Shown here: positions 9,811 through 42,933 of the stretch, in pieces
Layout: each line of letters opens with the position of its first letter
Position numbering within the stretch: position 1 is the first letter of the stretch
Origin: an uncultured Pseudomonadales bacterium
GTDB lineage: Bacteria > Patescibacteriota > Microgenomatia > UBA1400 > UBA12108
Length of the DNA stretch: 64,000 nt
NCBI GenBank assembly: GCA_964349305.1
Contig: CAYGFS010000001.1
Span: 15,209 to 79,208, forward strand
Direction of reading: 5' to 3'
Program-made: the position numbers and the translations under genes
The notes under the pieces: model-generated
Database searches by the model: none
The model's input: the letters and a program-made list of their open reading frames with translations, nothing else
What the model was told of the DNA's origin: nothing

Positions 9811-9875
9811 AAGGTCAGACCTTCCCTCCTGATTGATTATGGTCGGGTTGGGCACTTCCTTCAAGGTCTGACCTT
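9811..9875. repeat. paired 13-bp palindromes AAGGTCAGACCTT (9811-9823) and AAGGTCTGACCTT (9863-9875) with a 39-bp spacer, spanning the murC stop codon and lying 10 nt upstream of the murB start
   Basis: Direct reading: the two 13-mers are mutual reverse complements. Same architecture as the AAGGACTGTCCTT/AAGGACAGTCCTT pair at 7417-7489. Confidence 0.6.
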
Positions 9876-11215
9876 GTAGCGTCGCCTATTTTCACCCATT
9901 TTTCATGGAGTTTGTAGACAAATCCCGCACCCATGGTGAGGATGAGATCGCCAGGTTTGGAGGCGGCCCAGACAATATCGGCGGCATTGTCCCACGTGAG
10001 CGCCATGGCCGCCGAGTTATGTTTAGCCACTTCGGCGGCGAAGGACTCCGGGGTAATTTGGTGAGCTACCCCTTTTTCCCTGGCTGATTCGAAAATAGGC
10101 ATGATGAAGGGAAGATCGGACAGGGCGATCGATTTAGCAAATTCGTCCAGCAATGCTTCGGTACGGCTATAGGTATGGGACTCGAACACGAGTAGAATGC
10201 GGGAGTCAGGAAAATGTGCTTTAAATGATTGAACTGTGAGCTCAATCTCGCGTGGATGATGGCCGTAATCGTCGTAAAGTAGGCGTCCAGCAACCTCTCC
10301 ATGGCTTTCCTGGCGTCTCCCTGCTCCATGGTAGGCCTTGATCGCTGCGAGTGCTTGCGATTCGCTTAAACCGGCCTCTATGGCGGCCAAGACGGCGGCC
10401 AGTGCATCCAACTTGTTTTGATCGCCAAACACGGAGAGCTGGAGTTGGGCATAGAGCGAGTGGTTTGATCCGTATGGTATCACTTTGATATCCTGCAGGG
10501 CCTGGCCCTGAAGGTCGAGAATTTGAGCGGTCAAAGGGTCGGAGGGATTACAGATCCAAGTACCACCTACAGGAATGGAGGCCACGAGGTCGGCAAACGC
10601 CTGACGGGTAGCGGAGGCGTCCGGATAAATATCGGGATGATCGTGGATGATATTGGTGGTAATCAGGATTTGGGGAGTAAGGAGCGCAAACTTTGGCCTG
10701 GAATCAGTCTTGCTAATGGCATACTCGTCTGATTCCACCACAAAGTAGGAATCATCCCCTGCATGACCGGGGGCACTGAGCCCAGCGATAGATCCAGTAC
10801 CGACATAATACCCGACATCACGCCCAGCTGCGTGAAAAAGTGCGGCCAGCATGGCGGATGTGGTGGTCTTACCCCCAACCCCAGCCACTGAGATGACTTT
10901 TTTATCACTGACAAACTCGGCCAGAGCTTCGGCGAGTGAGAGAGGGTCAGACACTCCCGGAGTGTGGGAGCCCTTCACTCCGGGAGTGATGGATGCAGTG
11001 GCTACATAAGCCCCAGAATAAATAATTTCATCAACGTCAGGGATCGGATCGGAAAAAGATTGAATTTTGATACCTCGCTTATTCAAAATATCGTCCGTGA
11101 TAAATGACTCATTTGTGTCTGACCCAGATATAGTCCAACCGGTATCTTGCATGGCGAGAGCCAGCGAACACATCCCTACACCCTTGATCCCGATATAATA
11201 CGCTGATTTGGTCAT
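9815..11215 (-). CDS. murC: UDP-N-acetylmuramate--L-alanine ligase MurC (carries two in-frame palindromic insertions)
   Basis: 466 aa, MTKSAYYIGIKGVGMCSLA..., Mur ligase P-loop (GVGGKTTTSAML). Confidence 0.9.
   Translation of the reverse strand: MTKSAYYIGIKGVGMCSLALAMQDTGWTISGSDTNESFITDDILNKRGIKIQSFSDPIPDVDEIIYSGAYVATASITPGVKGSHTPGVSDPLSLAEALAEFVSDKKVISVAGVGGKTTTSAMLAALFHAAGRDVGYYVGTGSIAGLSAPGHAGDDSYFVVESDEYAISKTDSRPKFALLTPQILITTNIIHDHPDIYPDASATRQAFADLVASIPVGGTWICNPSDPLTAQILDLQGQALQDIKVIPYGSNHSLYAQLQLSVFGDQNKLDALAAVLAAIEAGLSESQALAAIKAYHGAGRRQESHGEVAGRLLYDDYGHHPREIELTVQSFKAHFPDSRILLVFESHTYSRTEALLDEFAKSIALSDLPFIMPIFESAREKGVAHQITPESFAAEVAKHNSAAMALTWDNAADIVWAASKPGDLILTMGAGFVYKLHEKWVKIGDATRSDLEGSAQPDHNQSGGKV
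10492..10514. repeat. family-B in-frame palindromic element copy B1 (CCTGCAGGGCCTGGCCCTGAAGG) inside murC, encoding LQGQALQ
   Basis: 22/23 identical to 42573-42595 in an unrelated GT4 gene. 11-bp arms with a 1-nt loop. Confidence 0.7.
10952..10988. repeat. family-A in-frame palindromic element copy A1 (CACTCCCGGAGTG-TGGGAGCCCTT-CACTCCGGGAGTG; arms 13 bp) inside murC, encoding TPGVKGSHTPGV
   Basis: Second copy at about 36094-36130 in a GT4 gene with the same loop, stems changed in a compensatory way (T/A swaps), and an identical encoded peptide. Confidence 0.75.
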
Positions 11216-11216
11216 A

Positions 11217-11963
11217 TCATGGTTTTATTTTGGTTTGTGCTTTGGCAAAATCACTGCGATTGTTGACACCATGCCAGATAGAGTCATCTTTGACGAAGAA
11301 AGCCTCGACTTTCTTGCCATTTTTGAGCGCGATTTCGATCATGTCGGTCAAATAATATTCGCCTGAAAGCGGATTTTGTTGAATTTGGTCGATGTAGCTC
11401 TCTAGAAACTTTTTGTCAAAACAGTAAAACCCAGTATTAATTTCTTGGATCTGTTTCTCTCCGTCGGTCGCGTTTTTTTCTTCTACGATACGGAGGACTT
11501 TACCGTTTGCGTCCCGAATGATGCGACCTAAACCGGTGGGGTCTTCTTTGTGGATGGTGAGAAACAGGAGGTCGCAGCCGAGATCATTTTTCTTGGCGGC
11601 CATTTCGGAAAACAAGGCGGGGGGATAGAAAGCAGAGTCGTCGCCGTAGACTGTCAGGACTGTGGTGATATCTGAACCAAGATGTGGGATAGCGGTTTTG
11701 ATGGCGTCACCGGTGCCAAGCTGCTGATCCTGGACTGCGTAAGTTACTTTGTTGCCTAGTGCCGATCGAACTGAATCAGATTGGTAGCCGACCACGGCAA
11801 TCACCGTGGATATACCCGCCTGGTAGAGGTGGTCCACGGTACGGACAATCATTGGTTCGCCGCCGAGTTTGAAAACTACTTTGTTTTTGGTTTTGGCTTT
11901 CATCCGACTCCCACGGCCGGCGGCAAGGATGATAGCGGCGGTATTTGTTAAATCATAAATCAT
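11217..11963 (-). CDS. sugar-1-phosphate nucleotidyltransferase, GlmU N-terminal-domain-like (UDP-GlcNAc pyrophosphorylase-like); no acetyltransferase domain
   Basis: LAAGRGSRMK nucleotidyltransferase signature (as in GlmU VILAAGKGTRM), about 248 aa. Start set at MIYDLTNTAAIILAAG; the longer track ORF overlaps the murE 3' end. Confidence 0.6.
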   Translation of the reverse strand: MIYDLTNTAAIILAAGRGSRMKAKTKNKVVFKLGGEPMIVRTVDHLYQAGISTVIAVVGYQSDSVRSALGNKVTYAVQDQQLGTGDAIKTAIPHLGSDITTVLTVYGDDSAFYPPALFSEMAAKKNDLGCDLLFLTIHKEDPTGLGRIIRDANGKVLRIVEEKNATDGEKQIQEINTGFYCFDKKFLESYIDQIQQNPLSGEYYLTDMIEIALKNGKKVEAFFVKDDSIWHGVNNRSDFAKAQTKIKP

Positions 11964-11982
11964 AAATTCTTCAATTCTCAAA

Positions 11983-13269
11983 TTATTTCTTGTTGAGTGC
12001 TGCTTGTAATGCTTCGTGTTCGGACCAAGGTGTTTCAGTATATCCATCGAGGTTCATCGATTCTTCGTGTCCCTTGCCACAGGTTACTACCCAATCCCCT
12101 GGTTTGGCCAGTACATTGATAGCATAACTGATCGCTTTTTGCCGGTCGAGCTCGATCGTGACGCTCCCGCGCTTTTTCTTAGGGATACCGACCATAATTG
12201 CTTGGGCAATCTCGCCGGCATCTTCGACTCGCGGATCTTCGGAGGTCAAGACAATTTTATCCGCCAGTTCGGCGGCAGCTGCCCCCATCAAGGGGCGCTT
12301 GGAGGCATCTCTGAGTCCGGCGGAGCCAAAGACGACTATGAGCGACTCGCCCTCTCCTAGTTTGGAGCGCAAGTTGGTGAGAACCGAGCGCAAGGCATTG
12401 GGAGTGTGGGCAAAATCGACGAAGGCGTGAATACCTCTGGTATTATTAATCTCTTCGAGCCGACCGCGGACTCCGCGAAAACTAGAGAGAGCATGTTTGA
12501 TATCGATCGGACTAATCCCCAGCAGTAGTGCGGTAGAGATGGCAGCCAGAGTATTGTAGAGGTTGTACTCACCAGTGAGGGCGATCGTGTAGGTGGTAGA
12601 ACCCAGGGTAAAGACGGTCTTGTCGGCTAAGTATTCGATGTGGTCTGGCTTGATTTGTGAATCCGTCTGAATAGAATAAGTCGAGAACATTACCTTGGGG
12701 AGACGCGCATTGATGTCACCAAAAATCTCCAAATCTTTGTTGACGACGGCGTGGCGCGCATGCTTGAAAAGCTTGAGTTTAGCGTCGCGATAGGCGGCAA
12801 AGTTCGGGTGATAATCGAGATGTTCGTGAGTAATGTTGGTGAGGACAGCAATCTTCGGTCTGAGAGGGTAAACGCGGAATTGATCGAGGCCGTGGCTCGT
12901 GACTTCGAGGACTACGTAGCGGATTTTTTGTGAGCGCATGCGCCGCAGGAGCGCCTGGAGGGCAAAAGGATTGGGCGAAGTCACGTGGAATCCAGTTTTC
13001 AGGTTTTTGCGGCCTACTTTGGCATCGACGGTCGAGATGAGCGCGACCTTCTTTTTGGCAGTCTTTAAAATATGGTAAATGAGAGTAGAAGTGGTAGTTT
13101 TGCCGTCGGTCCCAGTAACCCCAATGATCTCCAAATCTCTCCCTGGATCACCGTACAGCCTCGCGGCCAAAAATGCCTTGGGAAGATGATAGGCATAATT
13201 GACGACAAACTGAGGAAAAAGCGGGCGAAGTTTTCGCGCTAAACTGAGGATAAGTCGCTTAATTTTCAT
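11983..13269 (-). CDS. murE: Mur ligase of the MurE/MurF type (UDP-MurNAc-tripeptide synthetase; MurE favoured), the only E/F-type ligase in the cluster
   Basis: GVTGTDGKTTTS P-loop, Mur ligase middle and C-terminal domains, C-terminal EDPR motif resembling the MurE DNPR. Start set at MKIKRLILS; the upstream extension overlaps ftsI. Confidence 0.65.
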   Translation of the reverse strand: MKIKRLILSLARKLRPLFPQFVVNYAYHLPKAFLAARLYGDPGRDLEIIGVTGTDGKTTTSTLIYHILKTAKKKVALISTVDAKVGRKNLKTGFHVTSPNPFALQALLRRMRSQKIRYVVLEVTSHGLDQFRVYPLRPKIAVLTNITHEHLDYHPNFAAYRDAKLKLFKHARHAVVNKDLEIFGDINARLPKVMFSTYSIQTDSQIKPDHIEYLADKTVFTLGSTTYTIALTGEYNLYNTLAAISTALLLGISPIDIKHALSSFRGVRGRLEEINNTRGIHAFVDFAHTPNALRSVLTNLRSKLGEGESLIVVFGSAGLRDASKRPLMGAAAAELADKIVLTSEDPRVEDAGEIAQAIMVGIPKKKRGSVTIELDRQKAISYAINVLAKPGDWVVTCGKGHEESMNLDGYTETPWSEHEALQAALNKK

Positions 13270-23584: not shown

Positions 23585-24654
23585 AGACTGTTGATCCTCT
23601 CCTTCATTTGTGTCGCCCAAATATTTTGATCAAACTGCTTCGCGCTGGCTACACAAACTGAGGGCACGAAAGTCATTGTATCAAACTGCTTGAGCGCTTT
23701 GGCAAATGAATCCACCGTCGCTTCCTCGAGTAAAATCCCCGCCTTGCCTGGAATAACAATATCGAGCGCACCACCCCGAGCATAAGCGATGACTGGCTTG
23801 CCGGCAGCTAACGCTTCACACATGGAGATCCCAAAATCCTCCTCATTGGCCTGGAGGTAGGCCAAACAATGCCGGTAGTAATTGGGTAATTCTGCGTCAT
23901 TGACGTGGCCGAGCAATTCGACAGTCGGACCAGCTATTTGCAGGAGACGCCCGTATTCGCTCCCCTGCCCAATAATTTTGAGCTTTACTTTCGCTTGGTT
24001 GGCAGCGCGGATCAACACGTCGATTTTTTTGTAGGGGACGAGGCGTGAGACCACGAGGAAGTAATTAGAATCTAGACTCCAGACTTTAGACTTTAGTGGG
24101 ACTGCAGAGAATTTTGTGGTATCGACAGGGGGGAATATTATTGCAGCATCACGATTGTAGATATTTTTTATACGTTTTTTCACTTGAGTACTTATTGCAA
24201 TCATTTCTTCTGGTCTACTAGCAGCGACCAAATCCCATTGACGCAAGTAATTGCCGACAAAGCGGTAGAGAGGATTTGAGAGGTATTCGCGAGCGTGTGA
24301 GTAGAGATAGCGAGTAGGAGTCAAGCAATAATATAGATGTTTGGTCCCAGGGCGAGTAATGACCCCCTTGGATTCGGCGCTGCCGATCGAGATAACTAAA
24401 TCGTAACTACGCAAATCGAAGGATTCAAAAATAAAAGGCATGAGAAACGGGATCCACTCGTGGTGCGTACGCAAGAATGGAACTCGATTAAGCCAAGAGG
24501 TATGGACGTGCCAATCTTTGGAAAAGGCCGCACGGATGGGATCCCAAACGCTGGTATACCAGTCTGCCTCAGGATACATCTTGTGAAAGGCGATCAAAAC
24601 CTGCTCGGCACCCCCTATTTTGTTTAGGCGATCATAAACTATGGCTACGCGCAT
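23563..24654 (-). CDS. glycosyltransferase family 4 (GT-B, retaining)
   Basis: 363 aa, MRVAIVYDRLNKIGGAEQV..., C-terminal E-x7-E-like GT4 region (LQANEEDFGISMCEALAAGKPVIA). Confidence 0.8.
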   Translation of the reverse strand: MRVAIVYDRLNKIGGAEQVLIAFHKMYPEADWYTSVWDPIRAAFSKDWHVHTSWLNRVPFLRTHHEWIPFLMPFIFESFDLRSYDLVISIGSAESKGVITRPGTKHLYYCLTPTRYLYSHAREYLSNPLYRFVGNYLRQWDLVAASRPEEMIAISTQVKKRIKNIYNRDAAIIFPPVDTTKFSAVPLKSKVWSLDSNYFLVVSRLVPYKKIDVLIRAANQAKVKLKIIGQGSEYGRLLQIAGPTVELLGHVNDAELPNYYRHCLAYLQANEEDFGISMCEALAAGKPVIAYARGGALDIVIPGKAGILLEEATVDSFAKALKQFDTMTFVPSVCVASAKQFDQNIWATQMKERINSLCQTNQK

Positions 24655-25708
24655 TGATCACCTCCGCAATATCTTTGGCTACATCGTCCCAGGTGCGGGG
24701 GAATTTCAGCGGGCGACTGCGTGAGACCGCTACAACGGATTTAATTTTGCTCACTAAATCGTCGACAGAATATGGATCAAAATAAGTGACTTTGTCGCCG
24801 TACACCTCGCGATATACGGGAATATTGCTGGCAATCACCGGTGTGCCGACCATGAGAGACTCTAGCCCCACGAGGCCGTATCCCTCCATCAGAGAAGGCG
24901 TGACAAGCAGCTGGGCGTGGCAATAGACTGAGACCAATTCTTCGTCGGAAAGCCCAGATAGAATGTGGATGCGGGTGCGGTCGTACGGCGCCAGGACTCT
25001 GGCTAAAAAAGGAGATTGTTGGGATACCATAACTAGCTCGTAGTCGGGAAACTGCTTGAGAGCTTCCAGTAATACCGGGAGGTTTTTGTGGGGATAAACA
25101 TTACCGACGAATAAAATATATTTGTTGGGAATCACAAATCTTAAATTCTCAAATTTCAAATTTTTGCGGAAAATCTCGTCCGGAGCCTCGGGGATAGAGT
25201 GGATATGTTCTGGTTTGAGACCCCCGAAACTGGCTAAAATGTCGTTCTTGACGGAGTTGGTCGGGACGATGATCTCTTGCGCGCTTGCTAGGGTGCGCTG
25301 GATAACCTGGTTGTAGCCAAAACGTTTGAGGGCATATAACCAAGGCGAGCGGGTAGTCGTGTCGCTGCCCGTAAAGTGGGTTTTGATCAAATCGTGAACA
25401 GTCACTATCTTGGGGATGCCCGACAAAATGGGAGTATTGAAGTGAAAAGTGTAGAGCAGATCACTCCCCAGAGATTTGAGCAATCTCGGCAGCTTGAGCT
25501 GTTCTGCCAGAGAATAATGGGGGATATCCGCATAGACCTTCTCTACGTTGTTCCCGCCCTCGAAGTGATCATATTCGGCAGTGCGAAGTAAGACCTGCAA
25601 GGTGTAACCTTGCAGGTGTTTGGGGAGGTATTTGAGGACATTGGTGGTGTAGCGGCCGAGACCCGTGTGACCGGAACCATAAAACCTGGCATCGATGGCG
25701 ATCTTCAT
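24632..25708 (-). CDS. glycosyltransferase family 4
   Basis: Start set at MKIAIDARFYG; C-terminal PSLMEGYGLVGLESLMVGTPVIAS. Carries family-B palindromic element copy B3. Confidence 0.8.
   Translation of the reverse strand: MKIAIDARFYGSGHTGLGRYTTNVLKYLPKHLQGYTLQVLLRTAEYDHFEGGNNVEKVYADIPHYSLAEQLKLPRLLKSLGSDLLYTFHFNTPILSGIPKIVTVHDLIKTHFTGSDTTTRSPWLYALKRFGYNQVIQRTLASAQEIIVPTNSVKNDILASFGGLKPEHIHSIPEAPDEIFRKNLKFENLRFVIPNKYILFVGNVYPHKNLPVLLEALKQFPDYELVMVSQQSPFLARVLAPYDRTRIHILSGLSDEELVSVYCHAQLLVTPSLMEGYGLVGLESLMVGTPVIASNIPVYREVYGDKVTYFDPYSVDDLVSKIKSVVAVSRSRPLKFPRTWDDVAKDIAEVINARSHSL
25593..25617. repeat. family-B in-frame palindromic element copy B3 (ACCTGCAAGGT-GTA-ACCTTGCAGGT) inside a GT4 gene, encoding HLQGYTLQV
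   Basis: 11-bp arms with a 3-nt loop. The outer CCTGCA..TGCAGG matches copies B1/B2, while the inner arms differ but stay complementary. Confidence 0.6.
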
Positions 25709-25715
25709 AGTTTGA

Positions 25716-26612
25716 TTATAGACTAAGTCTAGCGATCTTGAGGAGTTTGATCCCAAGATAAACGAACCAGCTCACAAAAAATGGATACTTGTTGGCGTAG
25801 TGTTTGCGATAGAAAATCTCCATCGCTTCGATTGACCAGAGTTTGACCTGGCGGGTGGTACTCCGCTCTGCTGTGGAAACCGTCCTGCTCTGCCTCGACA
25901 TGCCAGTCGTGATCCCCTTGTAGTGGAGCACAGACACAGCTGGATAGTACCAATTGCGATATCCTGCCTGTTTAAGTCGGTAACAGAGATCGAGATCTTC
26001 ACCGTAAAGGGGATAATCTTCATCCCACCAGCCAAGCTGGTTCCCGACCTCTTTGCGCACGAGCATAAACATGCCCCCAACGGCATCTATTTCATGCTCG
26101 GTCGCGTAGCCGAGATATCTTTTGGTGTAGCGATTAAATAGTGGTGTCGTGGGGAATAGCTTGGCTAATCCACTGAAATGGGTAAAGCTTGCCCAGGGGG
26201 TGGGGAAACCGCGATGGCTGGTCTCGTCGATACTGCCAGTGAGCGCCAAGTTGACCCTGGCGGTGAGGGCTCCAATCCGCTTGTCACTCCACAACTTGTC
26301 GTAACATTGTTTGAGATCATGATCCGCTTGGAAAGTCACGTCGGGATTGAGGAACAAAATAGTGTCGGCACCGGCGCGAGTAACCCCCAGATTGTTGGCA
26401 GCCGAGAAGCCGGTTGCGGTATCACGACTTACCCATATGACGGATTTAAATTCTTGTGCCACCATCAACTTGGAATCGTCAGAAGACGCGTTGTCGACGA
26501 CGATGATCTCGGTGCTAATCCCCTCTTGAGCTAAAACCGATTTAAGGGTTTCACGCAAAAAATCTTTGGCGTTGTGATTGACGATAATAACGGAGATATC
26601 GGGTTTACTCAT
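25716..26612 (-). CDS. glycosyltransferase family 2 (GT-A)
   Basis: ISVIIVNHNAKDFL...IIVVDNASSDDS and a DxD-type region. One of the few genes here with a canonical SD (GGAGA 7 nt upstream). Confidence 0.8.
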   Translation of the reverse strand: MSKPDISVIIVNHNAKDFLRETLKSVLAQEGISTEIIVVDNASSDDSKLMVAQEFKSVIWVSRDTATGFSAANNLGVTRAGADTILFLNPDVTFQADHDLKQCYDKLWSDKRIGALTARVNLALTGSIDETSHRGFPTPWASFTHFSGLAKLFPTTPLFNRYTKRYLGYATEHEIDAVGGMFMLVRKEVGNQLGWWDEDYPLYGEDLDLCYRLKQAGYRNWYYPAVSVLHYKGITTGMSRQSRTVSTAERSTTRQVKLWSIEAMEIFYRKHYANKYPFFVSWFVYLGIKLLKIARLSL

Positions 26613-26645
26613 AATTCTCCAATCTCAAATTATCAAATTCTCAAA

Positions 26646-27833
26646 TTAATTATTGAACTCGTTATAAACCGAGTCCAGCTCTTTGGCGATTATATCCCAG
26701 CTATAGCCGCGACGAACAATCTTTTGCCCGGCAGCCCCGAGCCTATTTTGAAGCGCGGTATCTTTGAGGAGTTTGACGGTGGCTCGCGACAATCCGTCGG
26801 GTGTATCGGCAATCAGTACGTCAATGCCGTTTTTGAGGTCGAGTCCCTCGGCAGCCAAAGTGGTTGCTACTACCGGGGTCCCGGTGATCATGGCTTCTAA
26901 TACTTTGTACCGCGTCCCCTTTCCGCTGCGGATGGGGGCCAGGAGGACGTGAGCGGTAGAGAAAGCCTTGCGGATGTCGTCGATACCACCGAGGACTTCG
27001 ATCGACGGTTCCTTAGCATACGCCTTGATTCTGTCGGTAGGGGAAAAACCCACAATTTTGAGCTTGGCATTTGGCAGCTCCCGCAAAATGAGCGGCCAGA
27101 TCTTTTTGACGATTTCTTCGACGGCTTCAATGTTGGGCAGCCACTTGAAAGTCCCAACAAACAAGACTGTGGGGTCTTTGGGTAAGTTCTTTTTGACCGC
27201 AGAGAAAAAGTCGAGATCGACCCCGTTGGCGACGACACTGGTATTGGTACGGGATCCCAGCTCGTGCTCAATAAAAACCTTGTCTTCGGCAGACATGGTG
27301 ATGAGCTTGTCGGCCTTTTTCCAAAAATAGCGCTCCCAATACTTGATTTTGGCGATGTCGATGGCGAGGATGGGACGCAAGAAGATGTTGGCTTTTTTCA
27401 TATAATCTTGATAGCCAAGATACTCGATGGTTTGCTCGGCCAGAATAATTGGGATGTTGGTGCTGGGGATATTGGGCATCATGTAGAAGGTCTCGGCGTG
27501 AATGAGGTCGTACTTGGCGTGCTGGAGTTCGCTCTCGACTGCTTTTTTCATTTCGAGCGGTAAATTGCGCGTGACGACGAAAGGATAAGAAGAAAAACCC
27601 GCCAAGAGGATATTGCGGAGCACAAAAGGATTTTTGGTGCGTTTGAACAGCTCGATTTTCTTACAATACTTTTGCAGCTCGGAGAGATGTTCCCGCTCGC
27701 GCTCGTCTTTGATGAGAGCAAACAAGGTAATATCGTGATTTTTGGATAAGTGCTTGAGGAGGTTGTAGGTGCGGATTTGACCGCCTGATACTAGGGGGTA
27801 CGGGAGATAGGGCGTGAGCATTAACACTTTCAT
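26646..27833 (-). CDS. glycosyltransferase family 4
   Basis: MKVLMLTPYLPYPLVSGGQIRTYNLLKHL N-terminal and GT4 C-terminal domain. Confidence 0.8.
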   Translation of the reverse strand: MKVLMLTPYLPYPLVSGGQIRTYNLLKHLSKNHDITLFALIKDEREREHLSELQKYCKKIELFKRTKNPFVLRNILLAGFSSYPFVVTRNLPLEMKKAVESELQHAKYDLIHAETFYMMPNIPSTNIPIILAEQTIEYLGYQDYMKKANIFLRPILAIDIAKIKYWERYFWKKADKLITMSAEDKVFIEHELGSRTNTSVVANGVDLDFFSAVKKNLPKDPTVLFVGTFKWLPNIEAVEEIVKKIWPLILRELPNAKLKIVGFSPTDRIKAYAKEPSIEVLGGIDDIRKAFSTAHVLLAPIRSGKGTRYKVLEAMITGTPVVATTLAAEGLDLKNGIDVLIADTPDGLSRATVKLLKDTALQNRLGAAGQKIVRRGYSWDIIAKELDSVYNEFNN

Positions 27834-30896: not shown

Positions 30897-31810
30897 GATC
30901 TAGCTATAAAATATTTTTTGTATTCTAACACTGCCTGCCTGCGGCTAGGGATCAGGCTAAAGATCGCTATCCGCATTGTTACTCCAGTATAGATGATGAT
31001 GCGGATAATCCATAATAGAGCTGGCGAGTGCTTGCGATAGATATATTCTATCCCCTTGAGTTCGTTTAAGAGACGAGTGGCGGAAGATTTTTTGGTGCTG
31101 GCGCTGCCGAGATGAACAATTGATGAGGCAGAGACAAAATAGGCTGACCGACCGGTTGTCTCGGCCAGTCTTTGGAAGAGCTCGATCTCTTCGGCGTACA
31201 TGAAAATACTTTCGTCAAAGCCGCCAACCCGAAGGAAATCGGCACGCTTGAGCAATACGCAGGCTCCCATGAGCCAATCGACTGGACGGGAATGGGTATA
31301 CCAACGTGCGTCGTACAAGTGGTAGGGAGAAGCAAAGAGATACTTGATAAGGGGCAGTTTGTCAAAGCCCCACATCCATCCCACAACGGCCCAGGGGGTA
31401 GGGAAATAGCCGGCCGATTGCTGGAAACTGCCGTCCTCGTAGTGAAACCCTGGCCCAACAGCCGAGATTTGATCGTTTGACTGGATAGTTTTAACTAAGC
31501 TCGAGAGAGTAGTGGCCGATAAATAAGCATCGGTATTGAGTAAGAGCAGATACTCCCCCTGGGCTTGTTTAGCCCCGAGATTGTTGCCGGCACCAAACCC
31601 GAGATTGGCACGACTAGCGACTATTTTGACCTGCGGATACTTTGACTTGATGGCAGCCACGGTGCCGTCGCTGGAGTGATTGTCCACCACAATGACCTCT
31701 AATTCTTCTGATTTGAATCCGGTGGTGGCAAAAACGTGTTTGAGACAAGTTAAAGTTAGATCACGAGTATTGTAGGAAACGATTATGACAGAGACGAAGG
31801 GTTTATGCAT
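30893..31810 (-). CDS. glycosyltransferase family 2
   Basis: FVSVIIVSYNTRDLT...VIVVDNHSSDGT and a DxD-type region. Confidence 0.8.
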   Translation of the reverse strand: MHKPFVSVIIVSYNTRDLTLTCLKHVFATTGFKSEELEVIVVDNHSSDGTVAAIKSKYPQVKIVASRANLGFGAGNNLGAKQAQGEYLLLLNTDAYLSATTLSSLVKTIQSNDQISAVGPGFHYEDGSFQQSAGYFPTPWAVVGWMWGFDKLPLIKYLFASPYHLYDARWYTHSRPVDWLMGACVLLKRADFLRVGGFDESIFMYAEEIELFQRLAETTGRSAYFVSASSIVHLGSASTKKSSATRLLNELKGIEYIYRKHSPALLWIIRIIIYTGVTMRIAIFSLIPSRRQAVLEYKKYFIARS

Positions 31811-31845
31811 AATCTCAAATCATAAATTCTCAAATTCTCAAATAA

Positions 31846-34650: not shown

Positions 34651-35768
34651 TTTTGGTGTCCTCTAGCGGCAGTCATTTTGAGAATCTTGAGTGTTTCGGC
34701 GGCACATTTGTCCCAGGAGAAATGTTTGGCGCGCGCGAGGGATTTTTTGACCCATTGCTCCCGATCCCCCCTGATCTCGGTGATGGCCCGGGCAATGTCG
34801 GCCGGATCACTGGCGTTGAAGAGCACGCCAGCGTCGCCGACCACTTCGGGCAGCGAGGAGTTGCTCGCGACGGCTACCGGGGCGCCACACCCCATGGCCT
34901 CAATGGCTGGGACACCAAAACCTTCGTAAAGTGAAGGCAAAACGTAGACATCGGCGTAAGTGTAGAGAGTTTTGCGGGCTTCGTCGCTGACATACCCAGT
35001 GAGCACAATATCTTTGAATTCCGGTGAATTTTTGATTACATCGAGCGTATCGTCGGCGAGCCAGCCTATTTTGCCGGCAATGACGAGCTTGCCTTTGTAG
35101 CCCGATTGCTTGAGGAGGTGAAACGCCTGAACCAGCTTGATCGCGTTTTTGCGGGGCTGGATGGTACCTAGAAATAGAAGATAGTTTTTAGACTCCAGAC
35201 GATAGTTGGAAAGTAGTTGCGAGGATATTTTTGGACTCACGTTGAAAATATCGGAGTCGTAACCATTGTGGACGACAGAGATTTTATTTTCTGGGACTTC
35301 ATAAATAGTCATTAAATCTTTTTTGGTCGCCTCCGAAACGGCAATAACCGAGGTGGCATGATTCACGGCTGCGCGCGTCCAGTGCTTGAGTTTGTAGAGA
35401 TCGCTTGGTAGAAAAAGGTCGGGGAAATATTCGTAAGCTAAATCATGAATCGTCACTACGCTCGGGCTGCCAACATATGTAGGCATATAGTGAGCGGGAG
35501 ACCAAAATACGTCGTTTTTGGCATGAGTCATGAGATAGATCGGTAGGCCAAAACGAATCCAAGCTTTGGTAGGACCTACCTGCTGATATTGCCAATGATC
35601 AGATTCGGCGGGGAGATCGCCCTGCAAGGGATCACGGTGATAAAGGGTAAAGTCGATCTCGGTACCCTTGTACAAATGTTTGAGAATATGGAAACAATAC
35701 TGCCCAGTCCCGACCCTATTACTGGCGTTGGCTTCGTTGATGTCAATGCCGATTTGCAATCTTTTCAT
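34647..35768 (-). CDS. glycosyltransferase family 4
   Basis: Start set at MKRLQIGIDINEAN; the 30-aa TTG-initiated extension in the track was rejected. C-terminal PSLYEGFGVPAIEAMGCGAPV. Coordinates here may be off by 1 in my line counting. Confidence 0.8.
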   Translation of the reverse strand: MKRLQIGIDINEANASNRVGTGQYCFHILKHLYKGTEIDFTLYHRDPLQGDLPAESDHWQYQQVGPTKAWIRFGLPIYLMTHAKNDVFWSPAHYMPTYVGSPSVVTIHDLAYEYFPDLFLPSDLYKLKHWTRAAVNHATSVIAVSEATKKDLMTIYEVPENKISVVHNGYDSDIFNVSPKISSQLLSNYRLESKNYLLFLGTIQPRKNAIKLVQAFHLLKQSGYKGKLVIAGKIGWLADDTLDVIKNSPEFKDIVLTGYVSDEARKTLYTYADVYVLPSLYEGFGVPAIEAMGCGAPVAVASNSSLPEVVGDAGVLFNASDPADIARAITEIRGDREQWVKKSLARAKHFSWDKCAAETLKILKMTAARGHQK

Positions 35769-36849
35769 AGACCTCCAAGATATTTTTTGCGGTTGATTCC
35801 CAGGTAAATTGACTGGCTTGCTTGAGCCCACGAACTTTGAGAGTGGCATGGCTGGCAAGGGCGGTGGTGATGCCTAGTCTGATAGAGTCGATGTCGAGTG
35901 GATTGACGAGAATAGCGGCTTCGCCCGCAATTTCGGGGAGAGATGAGAGACTCGAGGTGACGACCGGCGTACCACAGGCCATGGCTTCGAGCACGGGGAA
36001 ACCAAAGCCTTCATAAAGTGAGGGGAAAGCAAAGACACTGGCGCCGCTATAGAGCCCGGGTAAGTCAGACTCGGGGACAAAACCTAACGCAATCACACCC
36101 GGTGTGTGGGAGCCCTTCACACCGGGTGTGTCGGGTACACCCCAGCCGTGCTTGCCCACAATGACAAGCGGCAGCTCCTGACCTTTGGCGGCTTCGGCTA
36201 AACGGTCAATATTTTTGCGAGGTTCTTGAGTACCTAATGAGAGAATATATTTTTCTGGTAACTTATATTTAGTTTTCACTCGATCTATTTCTTCCTTCGA
36301 TTGAGACAAATATTGTGGAGATACACCTGGATAAACTACGTCAATGCGCAGCGGTGAGAGATTGTATATTTCCACTAGATCATTTTTTGTACTCATTGAA
36401 TCTGCGATAATATGAGTGTCGGAACTGACAATCTTTTTGAGCCGTCTAGTTTGGGTTCCCAGGATGAGCGAGTCAACGGTCTCGGGATATTTGACAAATA
36501 CTAGGTCGTGAACGGTCGTGACAATTTTGGCTTTGGCACTGGGCTGGCTCCAATCCGATGCGTGTACCAAATCGACCGCGCCGGTTAAGAGCTCAAACGG
36601 AATCGAGGTATCGTTTAAGGCATAACCGGCTAGTTTAGGCGGAAGCGGGAAAATCTTCCAGGTAGCTTTGTCCCAGGGTGAGGTCTGACTGAGCCGCGTA
36701 AAAAATGCACGCTGGCGGAGCGTGCCGGCATAGAGCACAAATTCGTGAGGTGAATTTGAGTTTAATAATGCTTCGGTTAAACCCTTCACATATCTGGCTA
36801 CCCCAGTCCCTTCGTAACACATCTGAGAAACGTCGATCGCGATTTTCAT
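35743..36849 (-). CDS. glycosyltransferase family 4 (carries family-A palindromic insertion encoding TPGVKGSHTPGV)
   Basis: MKIAIDVSQMCYEGTGVARYV... C-terminal PSLYEGFGFPVLEAMACGTPVV. Confidence 0.8.
   Translation of the reverse strand: MKIAIDVSQMCYEGTGVARYVKGLTEALLNSNSPHEFVLYAGTLRQRAFFTRLSQTSPWDKATWKIFPLPPKLAGYALNDTSIPFELLTGAVDLVHASDWSQPSAKAKIVTTVHDLVFVKYPETVDSLILGTQTRRLKKIVSSDTHIIADSMSTKNDLVEIYNLSPLRIDVVYPGVSPQYLSQSKEEIDRVKTKYKLPEKYILSLGTQEPRKNIDRLAEAAKGQELPLVIVGKHGWGVPDTPGVKGSHTPGVIALGFVPESDLPGLYSGASVFAFPSLYEGFGFPVLEAMACGTPVVTSSLSSLPEIAGEAAILVNPLDIDSIRLGITTALASHATLKVRGLKQASQFTWESTAKNILEVYEKIANRH
36094..36130. repeat. family-A in-frame palindromic element copy A2 (CACACCCGGTGTG-TGGGAGCCCTT-CACACCGGGTGTG)
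   Basis: Same loop as copy A1 at 10952-10988. Both 13-bp arms differ from A1 at two positions yet remain perfectly complementary. Coordinates +/-2. Confidence 0.75.
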
Positions 36850-41021: not shown

Positions 41022-41882
41022 TTATTTTGATAGTTTTCCAGTTAACAACATCTCGGTAATCCCAACAAAGCGACCGAAATCGTAGATTATTTTATAAATT
41101 AAGAAGAGAGGCTCATTGGGAGATTTGATCATTCCTAGGACTAGCGAAATGGGCATGGACGTGCGGGTGAGGGCGTAGAAGCTACCAAGGAGTCCGTATT
41201 TGTATGGCCGCTTGGCAGACCAGCGAGCCTGGCGGAAGACGGCTCCGAGCGTACCGGGATTGTGGTGGTAACAGATAGCGCGGGTGGCCAGTGGGCGCAC
41301 GCCGAGCTTATTAAACAAGCTCCAGGTATCGGTATAGCCGATGTTATCGAACCCCCCTACCCTGTCAAATTCGGATTTGAGGATGGCGCGAAAATCGGTG
41401 CCGTACGTGGGAGGGCCTGCCTGCGCAGGCAGGTTCGGTGGAAACCTTTTTTTGTCTTCCCACCCCTCTTCAATATTGAGACAGCGCGCCCAGACGTTGT
41501 CCCAATTGGCTACTCGCTCTTCCATGGTATATGTCCCGATCGCTTTCTTTGACTGAATTGGCTGGATTAAATCTTTAACATAATCTTTATCAAAAACCAT
41601 GTCGGCATCGACAAATAATAGGATGTCTGATTGCGCATGACTAGCACCCAAGTTGCGGGCGAGGGCCGGACCGCCATGGTTTTGTTTAATTAAAGTATAT
41701 TTGCGATCACCCATTACTTCGATAATTCGAATTATCGTAGTATCGGTACTACCATCGTCGACGACGATGACTTCGATTGGGACGGACTGCATAAGTAAAG
41801 ACTCTAGACAGGCTTGAATCGTTGACTCTGAGTTGTAAGCCGCGAGGATAGCAGAAGCAACTAATTTATTTGATGAGGTCAT
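41022..41882 (-). CDS. glycosyltransferase family 2
   Basis: ASAILAAYNSESTI...[12 protein letters not shown]...FVDADMVF. Contains the 18-bp perfect palindrome CCTGCCTGCGCAGGCAGG (41413-41430) in-frame (NLPAQAGPP). Confidence 0.8.
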   Translation of the reverse strand: MTSSNKLVASAILAAYNSESTIQACLESLLMQSVPIEVIVVDDGSTDTTIIRIIEVMGDRKYTLIKQNHGGPALARNLGASHAQSDILLFVDADMVFDKDYVKDLIQPIQSKKAIGTYTMEERVANWDNVWARCLNIEEGWEDKKRFPPNLPAQAGPPTYGTDFRAILKSEFDRVGGFDNIGYTDTWSLFNKLGVRPLATRAICYHHNPGTLGAVFRQARWSAKRPYKYGLLGSFYALTRTSMPISLVLGMIKSPNEPLFLIYKIIYDFGRFVGITEMLLTGKLSK

Positions 41883-42933
41883 GAAACTCCTGACTAATTT
41901 GTTTGACCACTGATTTTAACGCGTATGGTTTGAGCTGTGCGCCATAGTCGATTTTGCTGAGTGAGTGAGCTTGCTTGATCCCCTCGACGATGGCTGTGAT
42001 ATTGTGCGGATCGACATAGATACCCTGGTTGCCGATGATGTCACGACGGATGGGGTCGTCTGAGGCCACGATGGGGAGACCGGCAGCCATCGCTTCAAGG
42101 TACACCATCCCAAATGCTTCTTGAGGATCTGGTACAAAACAAAAGATATCACTGCCGCGATAGTAATCAGCTATCTCGCTATGTTCGACTTGTTTGATCC
42201 ATTTGAACTCACCGGGATAGTGACTGAGTTGCCTGGCAATATGACCCTGCTCTTCCCCGTCCCCCACTAAACAGAGTGATACTGACAGCTGGGAAGTGGC
42301 GGCAATCACCGAATCCACATTTTTGTATTTGGAAAGGGCGGAAACAGTGAGAACGACGGGGGACGGGAGTCCAGTAAGGGGTTTATGCTTGCCTCGGAAA
42401 GGTGTTGGATCGAACGGATTGGGGATATAGACGACTTTGGTGGATGAGGGAGCGATCCCACGAGCCCACACCTCTGCATCTGGTGTCAGAGCAACGAATA
42501 AATCTGGTATGGCGCGCAGGCTAGATTTGTCGTGATGACCAATACCGGCATGGCCAAAAGTGATTATCTTGGCCTGCAGGGCCTGGCCCTGCAGGATACG
42601 AACTTGGAGTGGACCGTTAATGGCTACGATAATGTCGGGCTTAAATAGAGCCAGCTGGGGAATGGAGGACTGGGTAAACTGGGCGACCAACCCACTCTCC
42701 TGGTCGACGTGGAGACGAAAAAGTAATTTCTCCCACATATTGCGGGGGGCAGAGGGCGGGATTTGACTAAGTGGGTTAACTCGTTTGACTAAGTAGGGCT
42801 TGGGCGATACAGGGCCTGATTGGATCATGAGGACGTCGTGATGTTTGGATAGTTCACTGGCGAGTTGATCGACCACGACCTCGCTACCTCTTTCGATAAG
42901 TCCCATGGTCATGTGCAAAAAAATTATTCTCAT
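41866..42933 (-). CDS. glycosyltransferase family 4
   Basis: C-terminal FGMVYLEAMAAGLPIVAS. Carries family-B element copy B2 encoding ILQGQALQA. Confidence 0.75.
   Translation of the reverse strand: MRIIFLHMTMGLIERGSEVVVDQLASELSKHHDVLMIQSGPVSPKPYLVKRVNPLSQIPPSAPRNMWEKLLFRLHVDQESGLVAQFTQSSIPQLALFKPDIIVAINGPLQVRILQGQALQAKIITFGHAGIGHHDKSSLRAIPDLFVALTPDAEVWARGIAPSSTKVVYIPNPFDPTPFRGKHKPLTGLPSPVVLTVSALSKYKNVDSVIAATSQLSVSLCLVGDGEEQGHIARQLSHYPGEFKWIKQVEHSEIADYYRGSDIFCFVPDPQEAFGMVYLEAMAAGLPIVASDDPIRRDIIGNQGIYVDPHNITAIVEGIKQAHSLSKIDYGAQLKPYALKSVVKQISQEFHDLIK
42573..42595. repeat. family-B in-frame palindromic element copy B2 (CCTGCAGGGCC-T-GGCCCTGCAGG), perfect 11-bp arms
   Basis: Near-identical (22/23) to copy B1 at 10492-10514 in murC. 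Confidence 0.7.

Follow-up and report, generated by a model that had tools for sequence, protein, structure and literature searches.

A 23-bp perfect palindrome in a GT4 glycosyltransferase gene, a probable copy of a REP-like hairpin repeat family with a RAYT-like Y1 transposase partner in Microgenomates

Palindromes of the window and their host genes

The window, i.e. the whole 64-kb stretch of DNA that was analysed, shows a positive GC skew throughout; genes for glycosyltransferases and for the cell wall (murB, murC) predominate, most of them on the minus strand. The closest named relatives of the window's proteins belong to Woesebacteria, Collierbacteria and Microgenomates. Three genes of the window contain palindromes of one family:

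41866..42933, minus strand: GT4 glycosyltransferase gene (Pfam Glycos_transf_1, 1.2e-25), coding for P0001
42573..42595: 23-bp palindrome CCTGCAGGGCC-T-GGCCCTGCAGG within this gene, translated as LQGQALQ (minus strand); canonical member of the repeat family
9815..11215, minus strand: murC, coding for UDP-N-acetylmuramate--alanine ligase
10492..10514: second copy, CCTGCAGGGCCTGGCCCTGAAGG, within murC, 22/23 identical, giving L(CTT)QGQALQ on the minus strand
24632..25756, minus strand: second GT4-type glycosyltransferase gene
25594..25616: third family member, CCTGCAAGG-TGTAA-CCTTGCAGG, within the second GT4-type gene, read on the minus strand as LQGYTLQ

The sequence at 42573-42595, CCTGCAGGGCCTGGCCCTGCAGG, consists of two perfect 11-bp arms around a central T (11+1+11) with CCTGCAGG at both ends, in agreement with the original prediction, which described a perfect palindrome with a one-nucleotide loop; its reading as LQGQALQ is likewise confirmed in the minus-strand ORF 41866-42933, where it corresponds to residues 107-113 of P0001. 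The 23-mer contains no stop codon in any frame. As single-stranded DNA it is predicted to fold into a hairpin of -12.8 kcal/mol (z = -4.8). Since a palindrome with 11-bp arms turned up in one of 30 Markov shuffles, one such palindrome alone is not non-random, and it is the repetition and the family context that carry the non-randomness: no 23-mers within three mismatches were found in 100 shuffles, compared to the two sites observed in the window.

The second of these sites, already noticed in murC as a near-identical copy, does belong to the same repeat family and differs from the GT4 copy by a single base (CTGAAGG) with the LQGQALQ frame shared. The copy at 25594-25616 had been missed. It possesses a 9-bp stem shared with the other copies, with one G:C pair changed to A:T on both sides, and a different loop, and its stem and loop type match the palindrome found around a transposase gene in another locus, L080 (see below).

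All three window copies are intragenic and all use the L-Q-G-x-x-L-Q frame. Their host enzymes are Rossmann-type, and the palindromes occupy helix-cap or loop positions, namely a helix-to-strand transition in each of the three proteins as well as in a GT2 glycosyltransferase encoded in locus L035. In the AlphaFold model of P0001 (pLDDT 89) the site comprises the last turn of helix 101-109 and the loop ahead of strand 115-119, and in MurC it separates a helix (LTAQIL) from a strand (IKVIPYG). A background of palindromes scattered with no bias in position or frame, which the original prediction had named as the outcome speaking against it, is therefore not what was found.

Aligned with 120 homologues, the GT4 site shows no difference in length except for separate, nested insertions. 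LQGQALQ pairs residue for residue with peptides such as LKRMALK, LRGLSSK and KAYFPSI, and its first Leu is the conserved helix-end Leu of the GT4 proteins, the codon of which is overlapped by the palindrome. A simple in-frame insertion at this site was considered and rejected in view of the gap-free alignment; the data allow replacement or in-place conversion of the sequence. A gain of residues of the kind produced by Rickettsia palindromic elements (RPEs) is likewise absent at the GT4 site in the 120 homologues. The MurC loop differs among orthologues by about 3 aa, not by 7-8.

The Y1 transposase gene and the distribution of the repeat

A scan for CCTGCAGGGCCWGGCCCTGMAGG across 185,579 species-representative genomes, of the kind the original prediction had suggested, resulted in 42 loci, none of the fetched ones matching the window itself, and linked the 23-mer with a gene for a Y1 (IS200-like) transposase, with copies of the repeat both on the flanks of the gene and within it. 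Out of these loci, 33 with a GC content of 38-52% hold 46 copies of the 23-mer and come from Candidatus Collierbacteria and Microgenomates MAGs, as well as from MAGs titled "uncultured Pseudomonadales" that share their gene set. The other nine are single matches in genomes of 58-70% GC, which we take, together with one viral match, as chance coding matches. A phage origin of the 23-mer was rejected, as the sole viral match is a 64%-GC contig resembling the chance matches in high-GC genomes.

Thirteen copies are present in GW2011_GWB2_45_17, and related genomes contain from 5 to 13 or more copies each among the fetched loci. The immediate flanks are not conserved between copies, so the 23-mer itself is the unit. 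No conserved flanking tetranucleotide or target site, the GTAG/CGTC tag of REP elements included, was detected, the flanks of all copies being variable. About half of the copies in the relatives are located within open frames of at least 200 codons, several of them at ORF ends; those in long ORFs use the LQG[QL]AL[QK] or the PAGPGPA frame, and the CRA[RW]PCR (CRARPCR) frame is never used. The extragenic predominance typical of REP elements is seen neither in the window nor in the relatives. In L004 and L005 there are REPIN-like inverted doublets with copies 9-15 bp apart.

The MAGs deposited as "uncultured Pseudomonadales bacterium" (L004, L006, L007, L009, L011, L019, L020, L022, and also L023, L027, L031, L035, L036, L039 and L042) have a GC content of 42-52%, hold many 23-mer copies and carry a Collierbacteria-type transposase (72% identical in L027). 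The taxonomic label of these low-GC MAGs looks wrong.

No Y1 transposase gene was found within the 64-kb window. In five other loci (L029, L034, L013, L027 and L012) a 224-aa ORF with a Y1_Tnp domain is enclosed by four copies of the 23-mer within about 750 bp. The main clusters and the palindrome variants of other transposase lineages are:

L029, 4242-5004: transposase gene with its 23-mer cluster
L034, 3609-4368: transposase gene with its 23-mer cluster
L013, 6482-7252: transposase gene with its 23-mer cluster
L078: transposase palindrome variant CCT[A/T]CAAGGCCWGGCCTTGAAGG
L079: transposase palindrome variant CCTGCAAGGTCAGACCTTGCAGG
L080: transposase palindrome variant CCTACAAGG-TTACA-CCTTGAAGG, with an extra copy inside ruvC
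L023: transposase palindrome variant GCAGGTTC-S-GAACCTGC, read internally as AGSEPA

The 224-aa protein matches the Pfam family Y1_Tnp (IS200-like) with an E-value of 2.9e-11 and 44 bits (cut-off 23), possesses an HFH motif and a KYIH tyrosine aligning with the tyrosine region of ISDra2 TnpA, and has ISDra2 TnpA as its best solved relative; the gene looks catalytically intact. Its sole NCBIfam match is REP_Tyr_transpos (NF047646) with 42.9 and 36.6 bits, below the curated RAYT equivalog cut-off of 80.

Of the four copies, one precedes the start codon by roughly 30-50 bp and one follows the stop codon by about 10 bp. The remaining two are inside the ORF and are translated as LQGQALQ and, in another frame, as PAGPGPAG, one of them being located after helix α-1 and the other 8 residues beyond the catalytic-Tyr motif KYIHRNP. 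The orientation of the central base or loop varies between the copies and between transposase orthologues. The clusters in L029, L034 and L013, with copies spaced 190-320 bp apart, were also considered as a CRISPR or integron-like array, which was discarded as each of them is one transposase gene with its flanking and internal copies. In the lineages of L078, L079, L080 and L023 these four positions are taken by a different palindrome variant in each lineage.

Covariation between the two internal peptides follows the pattern expected if both frames translate one 23-mer. In 104 sequences out of the 120 best transposase homologues, Q7 at site 1 occurs with A7 at site 2 in 29 cases and K7 with E7 in 43, with a single discordant case (Fisher 1.6e-19, a value not corrected for phylogeny). 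Ala5 at site 1 pairs with Pro-Gly at site 2 and Thr5 with Ser-Asp, and within site 2 Gly3 pairs with Pro6 and Arg3 with Leu6.

The transposase gene adjoins a PPDK-enolase-iPGM gene set in L078, L079 and L080, where the proteins are 61-75% identical, and has a similar copper-ATPase context in L029 and L034. Within the fetched loci there is one full transposase copy per genome, with no tnpB.

The L023 gene (1700-2700) codes for a Y1 transposase with 43% identity and is flanked by the 17-bp palindrome GCAGGTTC-G/C-GAACCTGC, the centres of which are opposite on the two sides; its internal palindrome (AGSEPA) occupies the position of PAGPGPAG in L029, and the same MAG holds many copies of the 23-mer. 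A truncated 138-aa Y1_Tnp ORF is located at 18814-19230 of L077 in the dcw cell-wall cluster, between ftsW and murG, on a 964-kb contig which also encodes the full-length family member P0313.

Symmetry at orthologous coding sites and the nature of the repeat

Hairpin repeats persist at orthologous coding positions with compensatory evolution. At the GT4 site, the DNA variants found in orthologues are themselves palindromic:

L044: GT4 orthologue variant CCTTCAAGGCCAGGCCTTGAAGG
L055: GT4 orthologue variant CCTGCAAGGCCAGGCCTTGCAGG
L057: GT4 orthologue variant CTGCAAGGTC-A-GACCTTGCAG
L043: GT4 orthologue variant, more diverged, ACTTAGGGG...CCTCTAAGT

In 13 orthologues 69.9% of the cells are paired at this site, compared to 56.3 ± 2.9 after shuffling (0/500) and 29-44% in slid controls, and both sides have changed in 10 of 11 pairs, values to be read bearing in mind that the tested structure was derived from one of the sequences and that relatedness inflates shuffle tests. 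At the MurC site the positions variable among eight orthologues are the paired positions 4/20 and 7/17 and the centre. Taken alone, the MurC covariation is weak (28/500, the same eight orthologues). Six of the 82 conserved four-fold codons of these murC genes have an invariant third base, and two of these belong to the palindrome, where they encode Gly and Ala.

Two simple histories were tried and rejected. A single ancient acquisition followed by decay only does not fit the NJ tree, in which the full-match state is scattered and includes distant branches (P0051, P0081), the tree being too weak to tell gains from losses. Strict genome-wide homogenisation is opposed by the three different variants carried by the transposase, MurC and GT4 sites (P0313, P0147 and P0048) in one 964-kb contig.

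The sequence at 42573-42595 is identical to the copies flanking and inside the Collierbacteria Y1 transposase gene, and the putative link of the window copies to a transposase rests on this identity with relatives. REP/RAYT systems are recognised by one syntenic Y1 gene located between copies of its own repeat (PMC3116915, PMC3733652, PMC6006769), and the pattern in the relatives points to a REP/RAYT-like system here. It is therefore quite reasonable to suggest that the palindrome belongs to a REP-like family of hairpin repeats in bacteria of the candidate phyla radiation (CPR; Microgenomates/Collierbacteria), whose partner would be a RAYT-like Y1 HUH tyrosine transposase; on the comparisons above we consider this probable. 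Counting against it are the lack of a transposase gene in the window, the missing tag, the RAYT score below the cut-off, a copy number of tens per genome at most rather than hundreds, the three differing variants in the 964-kb contig, the weak MurC covariation and the fact that a classical insertion at the GT4 site was not demonstrated.

How the copies arrive and are kept we infer by analogy with IS200/IS605 and RAYT biochemistry. The hairpin would form on single-stranded DNA, e.g. on the lagging-strand template, and the Y1 enzyme would bind it and cut or join beside it, whereby copies may be seeded and/or maintained. The GT4 copy would have arisen via replacement or conversion of pre-existing codons rather than simple insertion and would persist because its peptide is tolerated, coding copies surviving where the peptide is harmless. 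The arms may stay complementary through selection for the hairpin or through arm-to-arm template switching. A more far-reaching version, which we put forward only tentatively and regard as rather doubtful, is a self-referential REP system of CPR bacteria, in which the Y1 gene would encode, in two frames, two of its own target hairpins that evolve together with the flanking copies, and further copies would overwrite helix-cap or loop codons of housekeeping enzymes at unchanged length. If true, this would mean transposase-dependent or hairpin-templated conversion instead of cut-and-paste or copy-and-paste insertion.

The palindrome might alternatively be a hairpin selected by the host, i.e. a stem-loop of the GT4 and murC genes, in mRNA or DNA, that serves the cell, for instance by pausing translation at the boundary of a domain or loop or by affecting the stability or processing of the transcript, the transposase likeness being secondary. 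Palindromic variants at the site in many orthologues, the compensatory changes and the unvarying synonymous sites would all suit such a role, as would the location at helix-to-strand transitions in every case and the unchanged length, which in-place evolution expects. The identical 23-mer is nevertheless also present in intergenic DNA, is read in two frames, and both flanks a transposase gene and lies within it, and the family occupies three genes of the window; moreover, the intermediates are not G:U-compatible on the sense strand (e.g. the T4/C20 mismatch), and no Rfam family reached its gathering score anywhere in the 64-kb window. We therefore regard a host-selected hairpin as unlikely. 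It is less likely still that the palindromes are the ends and solo relics of an autonomous IS200/IS605-type (MITE-like) element rather than part of a domesticated RAYT/REP partnership. The Pfam Y1_Tnp match, the likeness to ISDra2 TnpA, the score below the RAYT equivalog cut-off and the truncated Y1_Tnp ORF in the dcw cluster of L077 are all compatible with such an element, but both flanks consist of the same symmetric palindrome instead of distinct left and right ends, the position is conserved and syntenic in three genomes at 61-75% identity, and there is one full copy per fetched genome and no tnpB.

It is highly improbable that CCTGCAGG/CTGCAG forms the basis of a signal for restriction-modification or DNA uptake, a meaning raised in the original prediction. 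The element does hold two SbfI/PstI-type sites and a central CCWGG, and CCTGCAGG occurs three times in the 64-kb window against 0.77 expected; none of these sites, however, is outside the palindromes, and CTGCAG is neither avoided nor enriched (9 observed, 13.0 ± 3.1 expected). DNA uptake sequences have a very high density, of the order of one per kb, whereas the window has about one copy per 20 kb (three in 64 kb) and related genomes have 5 to 13 copies or more each among the fetched loci. It is also the whole 23-mer that is conserved as a unit, and the variants of other lineages, e.g. CCTTCAAGG...CCTTGAAGG, do not contain CTGCAG. Chance or convergence at the protein level, with LQGQALQ being a favourable helix cap and the DNA identity following from codon usage, is the hardest of all to credit. 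A shared 7-mer of common residues is by our estimate not very improbable in about 20,000 codons, and single chance matches do occur in high-GC genomes and in one 64%-GC viral contig, but the nucleotide identity of 22/23 has no counterpart expected in shuffles, the same DNA is also found in the PAGPGPAG frame and in non-coding DNA, and there are multiple copies per low-GC genome.

The REP/RAYT-like reading can be compared with several described systems. REP/REPIN elements are associated with RAYT (TnpA-REP) transposases, and a RAYT gene with flanking REPs is called a REPtron (PMC3116915, PMC3733652, PMC6006769). The present family resembles them in being a short GC-rich dispersed hairpin repeat, of a length within the 20-40 bp range of REP elements, with a Y1 HUH gene bracketed by copies, a gene that appears to be single-copy and syntenic, inverted doublets and a repeat variant for each transposase lineage. 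It differs from them in having no GTAG/CGTC tag and a near-perfect symmetry, with the orientation set only by the central base or loop, as well as in the low copy number, the many intragenic copies, the CPR host, the two copies read in two frames inside the transposase ORF and a protein whose score does not reach the curated RAYT threshold.

A translated REP is not new in kind, as intragenic REPs and RPEs have already been documented (PMC3733652). Intragenic REPs were described in Opitutus terrae, in Xanthomonas recB and elsewhere by Di Nocera et al. in 2013 (PMC3733652); as in our case, these hairpins are translated within known proteins, and at least one is located at about the same site in related species (PMC3733652). 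They are described as insertions adding residues (PMC3733652), whereas the GT4 site has no length difference from its 120 homologues. RPEs are described as longer palindromic insertions adding peptide segments (PMC3733652). They are comparable to the present repeat as palindromes tolerated in-frame inside essential genes and encoding surface segments; the latter differs in having only 23 bp, in the unchanged length of the GT4 protein and in its putative link to a Y1 transposase. To our knowledge, no dedicated transposase of RPEs has been identified. With IS200/IS605 elements such as IS608 and ISDra2 the system shares the Y1 HUH fold and motifs. TnpA of these elements recognises subterminal hairpins on single-stranded DNA, and by analogy the Y1 enzyme may do the same here. 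The ends of IS200/IS605 elements are two different imperfect hairpins bounding the mobile unit, unlike the one symmetric palindrome here, of which there are four copies at a syntenic gene, both within it and on its flanks, and solo 23-mers in other places.

In a literature search we found none of the following features: a CPR host, an untagged near-perfect palindrome, two in-ORF copies in two frames evolving with the flanks, and the occupation of orthologous coding sites without length change. The search also yielded no publications dealing with Microgenomates palindromes or transposases. Ultra-small CPR genomes are thought to contain little mobile DNA, and the reading proposed would give a concrete, REP/RAYT-like identity to short perfect palindromes in their essential genes. 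For annotation, such palindromes account for unusual conserved peptides and for small indels of CPR proteins, and they can confound assembly and alignment. The LQG..L[KQ] and P..P..[AE]G positions are shared by more than 7,000 database proteins of one transposase family, which forms a natural data set for the co-evolution of hairpin and enzyme and could also show whether REP spread can proceed by sequence replacement.

Other short repeats

A second repeat family is represented by a REPIN-like doublet at 10952-10997 in murC and at 36094-36139 in a GT4-type gene (35743-36849). It consists of two inverted 13-bp palindromes (CACTCC-C-GGAGTG ... CACTCC-G-GGAGTG) parted by TGGGAGCCCTT, and both genes translate it as TPGVKGSHTPGV. 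In the second copy all four arms are changed in a compensating manner (CACACC/GGTGTG). Among MurC orthologues the doublet behaves as a presence/absence insertion, being carried only by P0126 and P0130.

The third family is an 18-bp perfect palindrome, CCTGCCTGCGCAGGCAGG, read as LPAQAG and located at 41416-41433 of the window in a GT2 gene (41022-41882). It is also found at 3333-3350 of L045, at 3122-3139 of L077, in L049-L052 and in L054. Comparison of L045 with L044 shows that, in GT4 orthologues, it is a genuine in-frame insertion of 18 bp, and in L049-L054 it is nested in the 23-mer site.

The MurC homologues P0151 and P0168 possess an extra 13-residue segment, [AT]SLAS[TM]SDSESRR, directly after the LQG..LKG site, which may be another short inserted element. 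There is also an AT-rich direct repeat (family D1) ending in ...AAATTCTCAAATTCTCAAAT, which is present in the window in four copies (11940-11983, 25119-25162, 26603-26646 and 31800-31843), at least the first of them being located within an ORF (11217-12047).
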